Assembly (NCBI GenBank): GCA_028710695.1
Contig: JAQTTP010000005.1
Span: 30,001-62,000, forward strand
Length of the DNA: 32,000 nt
Direction: 5' to 3'
Origin: Candidatus Iainarchaeum sp.
Lineage (GTDB): Archaea > Iainarchaeota > Iainarchaeia > Iainarchaeales > 0-14-0-20-30-16
The position numbers and the translations under genes are program-made. The first letter of the stretch is position 1; each line of letters opens with the position of its first letter. The notes beneath the pieces were generated by a model. It did not search any database. It saw only the letters and a list, made by a program, of their open reading frames with translations, and was not told the origin of the DNA. Below are positions 9,810 to 30,010 of the stretch, one piece after another.

Positions 9810-10517
9810 TTACCTCTTTTTACAAACAACAAACCGCCTGAAAGAAAAGTATTTCAAAATAGGCATACTTGAAATTAATTCATCCACCATTTTATTACAA
9901 ATTATTAAGTCTAAACCTTTTTTAAGAATATTTATTCCTACACGAGGAATAATTTCAAAAGTTCTCTCTTCTACAATATCAAAACCACAAACATTTAGTG
10001 TATGTTTTAATTTTTTATTAGATACAAAAAATTGAGGCACCTTAAATCTTTTTTTTGAGTACAAGGCATTAAGGCTATGAGAAATACCACAGTCCAATAT
10101 TAACAAACCCCCCTTTTTTAAAACCCTATTTAATTCTTTTATCACACTATCAAAGGCCTCAATATAATAACAAGTAGAAAAACAAGTAACCATATCAAAA
10201 TAATTATTTTTAAAAGACAAATTAAGCAGGTTTCCTTGAACTAAGGTTATATTTTTTAGATTCTGTTTTTCAATAGATTTCGCAAATTCGGAAAGCATTT
10301 CTTGAGAAAAGTCAACTGCAATGATTTTTTCTGCTTTATTAGACATAGGCACAGTATATATTCCATTACCACAACCTGCGTCAAAAACTATTGATTCACT
10401 AGTAATATATTTATTTATAAGTTCTAAACGGATTTTATACAATCCGGAAGCAGCTTTCATAGTTTTTGCCATATTGGCATAGTATTTTTTAACTTTATTT
10501 TCGTAATTCTTTTTCAT
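9810..10517 (-). CDS. Class I SAM-dependent methyltransferase
   Basis: VFDAGCGNGIYTVPM (motif I), IIAVDFSQEML, FDMVTCFSTCYYI, and LKKGGLLIL. Confidence 0.85.
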   Translation of the reverse strand: MKKNYENKVKKYYANMAKTMKAASGLYKIRLELINKYITSESIVFDAGCGNGIYTVPMSNKAEKIIAVDFSQEMLSEFAKSIEKQNLKNITLVQGNLLNLSFKNNYFDMVTCFSTCYYIEAFDSVIKELNRVLKKGGLLILDCGISHSLNALYSKKRFKVPQFFVSNKKLKHTLNVCGFDIVEERTFEIIPRVGINILKKGLDLIICNKMVDELISSMPILKYFSFRRFVVCKKR

Positions 10518-18907: not shown

Positions 18908-18927
18908 GTTTATAAAGGTTACTTTTT
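18908..18927 (-). promoter_or_regulatory. Putative BRE/TATA promoter (minus-strand reading AAAAAGTAACCTTTATAAAC) for the wbpB-like operon
   Basis: The 20-nt string gtttataaaggttacttttt is identical to 24901..24920, and its core tttataaaggtt recurs at 29999..30010. It lies ~115 nt upstream of ATG 18794 and directly after the GTPase stop codon. Confidence 0.5.
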
Positions 18928-24396: not shown

Positions 24397-24408
24397 TTTA
24401 TAAAGGGC
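24397..24408 (-). promoter_or_regulatory. Putative BRE/TATA (minus reading GCCCTTTATAAA) for the 23728..24375 methyltransferase, probably a leaderless mRNA
   Basis: The TATA centre is ~25 nt upstream of ATG 24375. Same CC-TTTATAAA core as the three other sites. Confidence 0.5.
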
Positions 24409-24477
24409 TTGGTTTTATGTATAGAAAGACCAAAAAAAAGCACACGGAAACAAATCGATTTTTGCAAGTAGATGTCA

Positions 24478-24522
24478 AACGGGAACAAACTTTCCCGTTA
24501 GAGTTGGCGCCATTTATGGCGC
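24478..24522. other. Two adjacent GC-rich perfect hairpins of unknown function
   Basis: aacgggaa-caaact-ttcccgtt (24478-24499, 8 bp) and gcgcca-ttta-tggcgc (24507-24522, 6 bp). Flanked by A8 at 24432-24439 (U8 on the minus strand) and by T7 runs at 24549-24555 and 24560-24566 (plus strand). Confidence 0.5.
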
Positions 24523-24652
24523 GGGTTATGGAAAATAAACAATTTGACTTTTTTTGTTCTTTTTTTATCCACCTTAGATTAATTAAAACTAGAATATCCC
24601 AAATCCTTTGGGTTTGTGGATATGCCCCCTTTTCTTTTTTGGTGAACTTATG

Positions 24653-24678
24653 CTTTTTTCTTTTGGAAAAGAAAAAAG
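24653..24678 (-). terminator. Perfect 12-bp A/T palindrome plus U-tracts, a terminator-like element after the candidate ncRNA
   Basis: cttttttctttt-gg-aaaagaaaaaag. On the minus strand it begins 8 nt after the ncRNA 3' stem and reads CUUUUUUCUUUU. Confidence 0.45.
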
Positions 24679-24686
24679 AATAGAGT

Positions 24687-24879
24687 GGCAGGTAAAACGG
24701 TATACACAAGAGCATCTGGGACTACGGATATATACTCCCGGAATTGACCGCGCAAAAGACAGCAGATAAAATCTGCCCCAACATACAGCAAAGCACATGG
24801 CATGAAGCCAGAACGCTTGTTTGCATATCCTCACTGCGCCGTTTGCAAATCTCACGAGGAGATTTAGAGGTTACCTACC
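24687..24879 (-). ncRNA. Candidate structured ncRNA of unknown family (~193 nt)
   Basis: A GC-enriched island in an AT-rich spacer. A 9-bp terminal stem pairs GGUAGGUAA (24879-24871) with UUACCUGCC (24695-24687). Four internal hairpins lie at 24846-24866, 24788-24824, 24761-24777 and 24718-24739. Three helix-closing pairs are G.U on the minus strand but A.C on the plus strand. A TATA sits ~26 nt upstream and oligo-U downstream. Confidence 0.55.
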
Positions 24880-24900: not shown

Positions 24901-24920
24901 GTTTATAAAGGTTACTTTTT
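24901..24920 (-). promoter_or_regulatory. Putative BRE/TATA promoter of the candidate ncRNA
   Basis: gtttataaaggttacttttt is identical to 18908..18927. The TATA centre (about 24905) minus ~26 nt gives a start at about 24879, which is the first base of the terminal stem. Confidence 0.5.
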
Positions 24921-29980: not shown

Positions 29981-30010
29981 ATAAAGGGACACAAAAGCTT
30001 TATAAAGGTT
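29981..30010 (-). promoter_or_regulatory. Putative tandem rRNA promoters (minus reading AACCTTTATAAA and CCCTTTATAT)
   Basis: tttataaaggtt at 29999-30010 has the same core as 18909 and 24902. A second tataaaggg lies at 29982-29990. The predicted starts leave a ~170-200 nt leader containing hairpins (29880-29897, 29946-29962) and the processing-stem strand. Confidence 0.5.

Follow-up and report, generated by a model that had tools for sequence, protein, structure and literature searches.

A predicted structured RNA family with two pseudoknot helices beside a methyltransferase gene in Diapherotrites-like archaea

The locus and the RNA element

The window analyzed was a 32,000-nt stretch of DNA from Candidatus Iainarchaeum sp. 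(GenBank assembly GCA_028710695.1, contig JAQTTP010000005.1, positions 30,001 to 62,000). An rRNA operon on its minus strand is followed by a gene for a class I S-adenosylmethionine (SAM)-dependent methyltransferase. The spacer between the 23S rRNA and this gene is 729 nt long and the RNA element described here sits within it (Table 1). A first-pass annotation made from the sequence had put forward an orphan structured RNA encoded by the minus strand. This proposal is supported by covariation, by conserved promoter geometry and by the absence of an Rfam match. The element is very probably a real structured RNA gene. Comparison of the sequences suggests that it is a previously undescribed RNA family, confined as found to a Diapherotrites-like DPANN lineage. 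The novelty claimed is that of the family and the fold, and not of the function.

The element is an island of raised GC content, as first described. The GC fraction of 100-nt windows was 0.46-0.48 inside 24700-24850, compared to 0.23-0.36 in the flanks. In 12 of 12 tabulated sequences the RNA was GC-richer than the 100 nt on each side. The coordinates and strand given at the outset were correct. The minus strand folded at -63.8 kcal/mol with a z score of -3.04, compared to a z score of -1.47 for the plus strand, and only 1 of 200 dinucleotide shuffles folded as well on the minus strand. The 9-bp terminal stem was present, GGUAGGUAA pairing with UUACCUGCC through nine pairs including one U.G. 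The open reading frames (ORFs) called over the spacer did look random. They are not conserved, and the closest relative is without the 217 nt that most of them need.

Core fold and covariation

Relatives were collected as contigs encoding homologues of the methyltransferase and by a DNA-pattern scan of each public collection. Homologous elements were found in 11 distinct versions (the window, L001, L003, L004/5, L012, L015/16/25, L022, L036, L037, L038, and L039), all of them from Diapherotrites-like DPANN contigs. L001 is the closest relative and its methyltransferase is 93% identical to that of the window. A core of approximately 120 nt is shared across the family.

RNAalifold, applied to a plain MAFFT alignment of the 11 cores, recovered three helices blind. 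These were P-B, P-C (nested in P-B) and the S2 hairpin, with compensatory change in 19 of 24 pairs. Two crossing pseudoknot helices, S1 and S3, were exposed by comparing the sequences by eye. S1 joins two runs of five bases, of which one starts at the final G of an invariant GYUG and the other follows directly on an invariant GKA in the S2 loop. S3 joins two runs of four bases, one directly after an invariant GUGA and the other directly before GKA. Both helices are set by fixed offsets from invariant anchors, so there is no tuning for each sequence, and both were 100% paired. S1 was seen as GGGGC/GUCCC, GGAAC/GUUCC, GAAGC/GCUUC, and GAGAC/GUCUC. S3 was seen as GGAU/AUCC in the window, as GGGU/GCCC in L003, and as CAAC/GUUG, CAGU/AUUG, CAAU/AUUG, CGAC/GUUG, and CAGC/GUUG.

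Pairing was counted on the unedited MAFFT alignment over six helices and 33 pairs. The controls were 500 shuffles and sliding by 1-3 columns. A standard pair was formed in 92.6% of cells, compared to 77.3% in the shuffles and 36-49% in the slid controls. Both sides had changed in 25 of the 33 pairs (13.5 in the shuffles, 5-14 when slid). The covariation score was 0.596, compared to 0.289 and 0.09-0.15, respectively. None of the 500 shuffles reached any of five measures. Compensatory changes were abundant among the relatives and included both pseudoknots.

Individual helices agreed with these counts. Four of the seven P-C pairs were compensatory and the closing G.U was kept in 10 of 11 sequences, being G-C in L038. 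Seven of the eight S2 pairs were compensatory, and the two differences between the window and L001, both in the 3' strand (G to A and C to U), keep the pairing. The 16-nt S2 loop of the window, AU-AUCC-GUA-GUCCC-AG, holds the 3' strands of S3 and S1, and an invariant U (24780) directly precedes the S1 5' strand. The order of parts in the family is P-B, UGA, S3, P-C, U, S1, RGAUUYUAU, and P-B', then the S2 hairpin with the loop A-N-S3'-GKA-S1'-AG. Every part is present in the window at the expected offset.

Of the local hairpins in the single-sequence fold, GCAGAU/AUCUGC is unsupported by comparison. The fourth pair of this local hairpin was kept in 7 of 10 lineages, compared to 11 of 11 sequences for the alternative P-B pair. 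Its bases belong instead to the S1 5' strand, the invariant junction strand, and the P-B 3' strand. A pairing of CAAC with an invariant GUUG upstream of S1 was also rejected. The window has GGAU there and L003 has GGGU, and those bases pair with the S2 loop. The complement of the invariant GAUUUUAUC was not enriched and was not present in the rRNAs of the window.

In the fold supported by comparison the core has two arms. The S2 loop pairs with the two strands that flank P-C in arm P-B, so that it climbs one helix, S3 (4 bp), and descends the other, S1 (5-6 bp). A three-way junction joins P-B, S3, and S1, and its strands (UGA, GKA, and RGAUUYUAU) are all invariant or near-invariant. A second junction joins S3, S1, P-C, and S2. 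S3 and S1 are parallel and resemble the tines of a tuning fork.

The periphery is variable around this core and the length of the RNA ranges from approximately 141 to 302 nt. The short forms (L004, L037, and L038; 141-145 nt) have the closing helix only, hairpin A being missing from them. Hairpin A and an outer helix P-D are found in addition in the window clade (195-206 nt). The long forms (L012, L015, L022, L036, and L039; 286-302 nt) have an extra 5' domain of approximately 165 nt with three covarying hairpins. The closing helix P1 is GGUGGG/CCCACC in L003, where an A-U has become G-C and a U.G has become U-A. P-D is GCGGU/GCCGC in L003, and with two independent sequences only this is weak support. 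The outer helices P1, hairpin A, and P-D rest on two or three independent sequences.

Two features of the long forms were observed. Within the 5' domain (L012 9589-9755; also L015, L022, L036, and L039) the second hairpin has an invariant UUCUGUU in its loop, the complement of an invariant AACAGAA at the 5' end. These may form a third pseudoknot; both strands are invariant, so there is no covariation. The L039 RNA (732-865) has CAUAUG for the invariant CAGAUG and is without the AUCUGCAC tail, its core being otherwise intact. The L039 methyltransferase ORF (1078-1710) contains an in-frame TGA and TAA where L022 encodes G and E. The RNA and the methyltransferase may have decayed together, or the changes may be errors in this one metagenome contig.

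Table 1. Positions in the window of the RNA gene, its structural parts, its transcription signals and the adjacent genes.
Feature	Position	Strand	Basis
RNA gene, ~193-195 nt (GGUAGG...CCUGCC-AC)	24685..24879	minus	Fold, conservation, R1 model
P1 5' strand, GGUAGGUAA, pairs with 24695-24687	24871..24879	minus	Fold
P1 3' strand, UUACCUGCC	24687..24695	minus	Fold
Hairpin A, AAAUCUC-CUCGU-GAGAUUU, window clade only	24847..24865	minus	Fold; AAAUCCUA/UAGGAUUU in L003
P-B 5' strand, inner pairs, GCAG	24837-24834	minus	Alignment A4, columns 9-15; 8/9 P-B pairs compensatory
Invariant junction strand, UGA	24833-24831	minus	Alignment A4
Pseudoknot S3 5' strand, GGAU, pairs with AUCC at 24729-24726	24830-24827	minus	4/4 pairs compensatory
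P-C arm, base helix GCAA.../...AUGU with variable distal hairpin	24781..24824	minus	Columns 22-28 with 67-73
Pseudoknot S1 5' strand, GGGGC, pairs with GUCCC at 24722-24718	24779-24775	minus	3/5 pairs compensatory
Near-invariant junction strand, RGAUUYUAU (AGAUUUUAU in the window)	24774-24766	minus	Alignments A3 and A4
P-B 3' strand, CUGC(UGUC)	24765-24758	minus	RNAalifold helix, covariation counts
P-D, clade-specific outer helix around S2, GCGGU with ACCGU	24751-24747 with 24701-24697	minus	Sequence comparison
S2 hairpin, GGGAGUAU (24739-24732) with AUGCUCUU (24715-24708)	24708..24739	minus	Columns 115-122 with 142-149
BRE/TATA promoter string, AAAAAGTAACCTTTATAAAC	24901..24920	minus	Exact second copy in the window
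TATA box of the RNA, TTTATAAA	24909-24902	minus	Ends 22 nt before first stem base of the RNA
U-tract, U6CU4, likely archaeal terminator	24677-24667	minus	Starts 7 nt past the ...CCAC 3' end
16S rRNA	29771-28291	minus	Rfam scan of the window
tRNA-Ala with intron, 16S-23S spacer	28256-28149	minus	Rfam scan
23S rRNA	28038-25104	minus	Rfam scan
TATA box of the methyltransferase gene	24406-24397	minus	Ends 21 nt before ATG
Class I SAM-dependent methyltransferase gene, 215 aa	24375-23728	minus	ORF list, homologues

Distribution, gene neighborhood and transcription signals

A covariance model, R1, was built from the nested helices of the family alignment. It scored the window element at 90 bits, as a single copy in the window. 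It found one site per true locus (65-119 bits) and recovered none of the chance pattern matches. The pattern scan of the GTDB species genomes gave one match, which was already known. The JGI metagenomes gave 17 matches of which five were true. These were L022 (a new lineage), L025 (another copy from the L015/L016 lineage), and three duplicates of known loci. No matches were found in viral contigs.

In all 11 sequences the element is immediately upstream of the methyltransferase gene and in the same orientation. The neighbor upstream of the element is the 23S rRNA in the window, L001, and L003, and a TrmB-family regulator or HEAT-repeat gene in L004, L012, L022, and L038. The outer neighbors are the 23S rRNA and POR genes in the window clade. 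In the other clade they are a TrmB or a HEAT-repeat gene on one side, and a 187-aa gene plus Glycos_transf_4 on the other. The position downstream of the rRNA operon that the first-pass annotation had given to the element was found in the window's own clade but not in other lineages. As the upstream neighbor differs by clade, the link to the rRNA operon is incidental and that to the methyltransferase is the conserved one.

The methyltransferase homologues assign the source organism to the Diapherotrites-like DPANN archaea, and the only named match among them was a Candidatus Diapherotrites metagenome-assembled genome. Two protein searches (9 and 17 matches) confined the family to the clade of the element. 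No named NCBIfam family was found above the cut-off and only weak PDB matches were returned, so the enzyme gives no functional lead.

The RNA is preceded by a B recognition element (BRE) and TATA box. The 20-nt string AAAAAGTAACCTTTATAAAC does occur exactly twice in the window, at 24901-24920 and at 18908-18927 on the minus strand, where 0.01 occurrences were expected. The promoter core CCTTTATAAA is present at four sites in the window compared to 0.42 expected. All are on the minus strand: 29999-30008 before the 16S rRNA and its operon, within the 24901-24920 string, 24397-24406 before the methyltransferase gene, and 18909-18918. This core is a useful promoter signature for the source genome. 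The fourth promoter site (18908-18927) precedes a glycosylation-type gene cluster. In the relatives 19-22 nt separate the end of a TATA box (TTTATAWA; TTTAAATA in L038) from the 5' end of the RNA. L012, L036, and L039 have an extra overlapping TATA-like box nearer to that end. The predicted start of transcription is approximately 22 nt past a strong TATA/BRE promoter, of a type that the rRNA operon also has.

The 12-bp palindrome and the U-tracts previously placed after the 3' end were both present in the window. The U-tract recurs in relatives but the palindrome is not conserved. The perfect 12-bp inverted repeat lies inside arms at 24649-24664 and 24667-24682 (16 nt, 94%). Half of it is within a window-only insertion and relatives have none, which places the palindrome outside the element. 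Among the tabulated sequences a run of at least five T follows the 3' end in most lineages at a distance of 0-43 nt, which is 34-43 nt in several. Transcription would probably end at the U-tract, a few bases beyond the closing helix P1. In L012 (~9883-9925), L015, L036, and L037 a 3' tail UCUGCA and a downstream UGCAGA, followed by a U-tract, can form a terminator-like hairpin that overlaps the 3' end of the RNA.

The methyltransferase gene has its own predicted promoter. In the lineages checked its BRE/TATA is conserved, the end of the TATA box is 19-21 nt from the ATG, and no Shine-Dalgarno-like sequence is present. This spacing is the same as that from the TATA box of the RNA to the 5' end of the RNA. 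A TATA box close to the ATG without a Shine-Dalgarno sequence is the arrangement of leaderless archaeal mRNA. The gap between the RNA and the ATG varies from approximately 58 to 310 nt. In the window it includes a 217-nt insertion (24455-24671) upstream of the methyltransferase promoter, where L001 and L002 carry 16 nt. With a separate promoter predicted for the methyltransferase and a variable spacer, the RNA is best read as a separate gene. By the same prediction the RNA does not lie within the 5' untranslated leader, as a riboswitch would. The best explanation is that it is neither a coding region nor the leader of the adjacent gene.

Further observations were made around these genes. No second copy of the 217-nt insertion, as a repeat or mobile element, was found in the window or the related loci. 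Two GC-rich hairpins lie within it on the minus strand (24527-24508 and 24502-24475), and it could represent a further small transcript or the scar of an insertion. A methyltransferase promoter block, ATGTATAACCAAAAGCTTTTTTAAG, is present in L022 and L039, and with 1-3 differences in L004 (~9963-9990), L035, and L037. The palindrome AAAAGCTTTT in the L022/L039 block is a possible regulator site, and a TrmB-family gene is upstream in that clade. A 171-aa ORF with no Pfam match lies between the 23S rRNA and the RNA of L003 (442-957), where the window has just a 225-nt spacer. The intron of the tRNA-Ala is approximately 37 nt. This gene scored 57 bits with the Rfam tRNA model, yet ARAGORN called no tRNA in the window. 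The 23S rRNA of L001 contains a group I intron (RF00028, 94.9 bits; L001 124-384) and that of the window has none.

Function and comparison with known RNAs

The complex fold, the invariant bases in a pseudoknot-closed junction, and the variable periphery resemble those of ligand-binding, catalytic, or ribonucleoprotein (RNP)-core RNAs. The reading favored here, with some reserve, is a trans-acting folded RNA that presents the invariant junction as a binding or active site. The junction would most likely form a specific site for a protein or a small ligand. Several points weigh against this. The trans role and the pocket are drawn from architecture only, and strict adjacency to one gene family would also fit a cis-regulator or a dedicated partner RNA. 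The family comprises 11 sequences from perhaps eight or nine lineages of one clade. Sequence kinship inflates the shuffle statistics, while the slid controls retain that kinship. The public scans needed exact sequence patterns and the narrow distribution may reflect a limit of sensitivity. Both transcript ends are predictions from sequence, and the distance to the U-tract is very variable, with no U-tract in some lineages, which makes its terminator role putative.

The RNA could also be a dedicated partner of the adjacent methyltransferase, acting as its substrate, as a guide or activator subunit, or within an RNP. This is compatible with a trans-acting RNA but more specific, and it is considered unlikely. 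The two genes have stayed adjacent and co-oriented in 11 of 11 sequences although the outer neighbors differ by clade, and the methyltransferase family is likewise clade-restricted and without a named family. Genes 60-300 nt apart may nevertheless remain linked by chance through few rearrangements. The enzyme is a plain Rossmann methyltransferase of 210 aa with no recognizable RNA-binding domain. In the TrmB clade it lies beside an N-glycosylation cluster (Glycos_transf_4, STT3), suggesting a glycan or small-molecule substrate. L039, where two in-frame stops in the methyltransferase accompany an RNA without an invariant G and the 3' tail, would suit a partnership, but it is a single contig and the core of its RNA is otherwise intact. 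It is a tentative suggestion that the RNA is the RNA subunit of a new DPANN-specific RNP with the methyltransferase, which would then be RNA-dependent or RNA-targeted, or that it is a new catalytic or ligand-binding class with the three-way junction, closed by the two pseudoknots, as active site.

A cis-regulator of the methyltransferase, through riboswitch-like control of termination at the U-tract or through transcriptional interference, is improbable. The upstream, co-oriented position would suit it, as would the U-tract after the closing helix and a junction pocket with parallel helices like those of riboswitch aptamers. Read-through from the RNA would however give a poor mRNA, since the methyltransferase has its own conserved BRE/TATA at leaderless spacing and no Shine-Dalgarno sequence. 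The spacer varies between lineages and has accommodated the 217-nt insertion. The tail UCUGCA of L012, L015, L036, and L037 can pair with the downstream UGCAGA before a run of Us, but the window, L003, L004, L022, and L038 lack this alternative hairpin. Archaeal intrinsic termination relies on oligo-U and not on hairpins, which also counts against such control.

It is very doubtful that the element is a highly diverged 5S, signal recognition particle (SRP), or minimal RNase P RNA missed by standard models. The suspicion arises because the window clade places it just after the 23S rRNA, where 5S often sits, and because no 5S, SRP, or RNase P gene was found in the window or in approximately 61 kb of related loci. 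Its closing helix, multi-arm fold, and conserved core with variable periphery are also like RNase P RNA. No such model matched at E <= 10 on the 176-206 nt sequences or on the 300-nt form. The 5S loop C, the SRP helix 8 motif, and the full conserved regions CR-I and CR-V of RNase P are absent as features of the family. Inter-arm pseudoknots are foreign to the 5S fold, and the strand order cannot be mapped onto P4 and P6 of RNase P. Most lineages have no rRNA linkage and the length varies from 141 to 302 nt.

The least probable account is that there is no functional RNA, only a conserved DNA element or decayed remnant with structure by chance; the single-sequence z score of -3 is modest on its own and the ends are sequence-predicted, but compensatory change is seen in 25 of 33 pairs, with two long-range helices set by fixed offsets among them, strand-specific G.U pairs persist, and the promoter spacing is conserved.

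Nothing meaningful among the Rfam families fell on the element. At the gathering score no family matched it in the window or in 61 kb of 10 related loci. At E <= 10 sequences of 761, 471, 206, and 176 nt gave only chance-level unrelated matches, the 176-nt sequence giving none. The Rfam matches over the window and its relatives were 23S rRNA, 16S rRNA, tRNA-Ala, and the group I intron in the 23S rRNA of one relative. The exclusion of 5S, SRP, RNase P, C/D, and H/ACA RNAs by the first-pass annotation also held, as no model matched and the defining motifs are not features of the family. The C box RUGAUGA was present in 0 of 11 sequences and the D box CUGA in 2 of 11, and no snoRNA model came near threshold. 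The 3' ends read ...CAC and not the ACA-NNN of H/ACA RNAs. Self-cleaving ribozymes (hammerhead, twister, pistol, hatchet, and hepatitis delta virus (HDV)-like) gave no match at E <= 10, and CUGANGA was present in 1 of 11 sequences.

Mapping by eye was tried onto RNase P (P4/P6, CR-I, CR-IV, CR-V), the SRP Alu and S domains, and 5S, and onto the K-turn, loop E, UAA/GAN, hammerhead, HDV, twister, SAM-II, and SMK structures. None fitted. GUAGUCCCAG (as in human 7SL) and CCAGAUGC..UUGU..ACCG (as in the SMK box) were lineage-specific or too short. ACAGAA and GAAAGGUC in the long forms were likewise lineage-specific or too short to be meaningful.

Beyond rRNA, tRNA, RNase P, SRP, and guide RNAs, archaea have very few known classes of complex structured RNA. 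Literature searches returned no account of an RNA like this one, nor of any such class from DPANN organisms. Two covariation-backed pseudoknots with an invariant junction represent a complexity usual in ribozymes, riboswitch aptamers, and RNP cores. Such complexity in very small genomes, where each retained gene likely matters, points to an undescribed function. The strict pairing with a lineage-specific methyltransferase provides a directly testable hypothesis.

The element was compared to the systems it most resembles. It shares with 5S rRNA the place after the 23S rRNA (in the window clade), the size class, a terminal helix, and a multi-arm junction. The 5S model (RF00001) did not match at the gathering score, nor at E <= 10 on 761, 206, and 176 nt, and the loop C and helix III motifs (CCGAAC, CCCAUC, and GAAGUUAAGC) were absent from all 11 RNAs. 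5S rRNA has an extended fold without pairing between arms whereas the arms of the element are joined by a 9-10 bp pseudoknot. Loop C and loop E sequences are also missing from the element, its promoter is separate, and most lineages show no linkage of it to rRNA.

The S domain of archaeal SRP RNA likewise has a three-way junction and side-by-side arms joined at their tips, and the long form of approximately 300 nt is of SRP size. The arms of the S domain are held by A-minor contacts and those of the element by Watson-Crick pseudoknots. No covariance-model match was found to archaeal SRP RNA (RF01857), and the helix 8 GNAR/AGCA motif was present in 1 of 11 sequences.

RNase P RNA, especially the Pyrobaculum type T (RF02357), is similar as a stable archaeal RNA of approximately 200-300 nt with a closing P1 and pseudoknots, and in having a conserved core with lineage-specific gain or loss of a whole peripheral domain. 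The RNase P models (RF00373 and RF02357) did not match, and the full CR-I GNAANNUCNGNG and CR-V ACANAANNNNGNNUA were absent from all 11 RNAs. A short GNAANNUC was present in five of the 11 without a complementary partner. Unlike RNase P RNA the element has no P4-like pairing, a strand order incompatible with P4 or P6, and its variable domain at the 5' end and not as a mid-insertion.

The tuning-fork aptamers of the purine-riboswitch type have a closing helix and two parallel helices tied at their far ends. They also have invariant bases in three junction strands, one of them long, and long-range loop pairing. In the THF-I (tetrahydrofolate) riboswitch a hairpin loop pairs with the internal loop of another arm. 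No Rfam riboswitch model matched the element. Its parallel helices are pseudoknots formed from one 16-nt loop and not kissing hairpins. It is 2-4 times larger and has its own predicted promoter and terminator, and a separate leaderless promoter serves the gene downstream.

Orphan structured noncoding RNAs have been found as GC islands in AT-rich intergenic regions (IGRs) by the GC-IGR approach of the Breaker laboratory (PMC6429828, PMC11109978). These RNAs are bacterial whereas the element comes from DPANN archaea, and neither sequence nor model comparison linked it to any of them. The likeness to raiA and OLE lies in the GC island, the covariation, the complex fold, and the orphan function, and the family further shows that RNA discovery in DPANN genomes can start from GC islands within AT-rich spacers.

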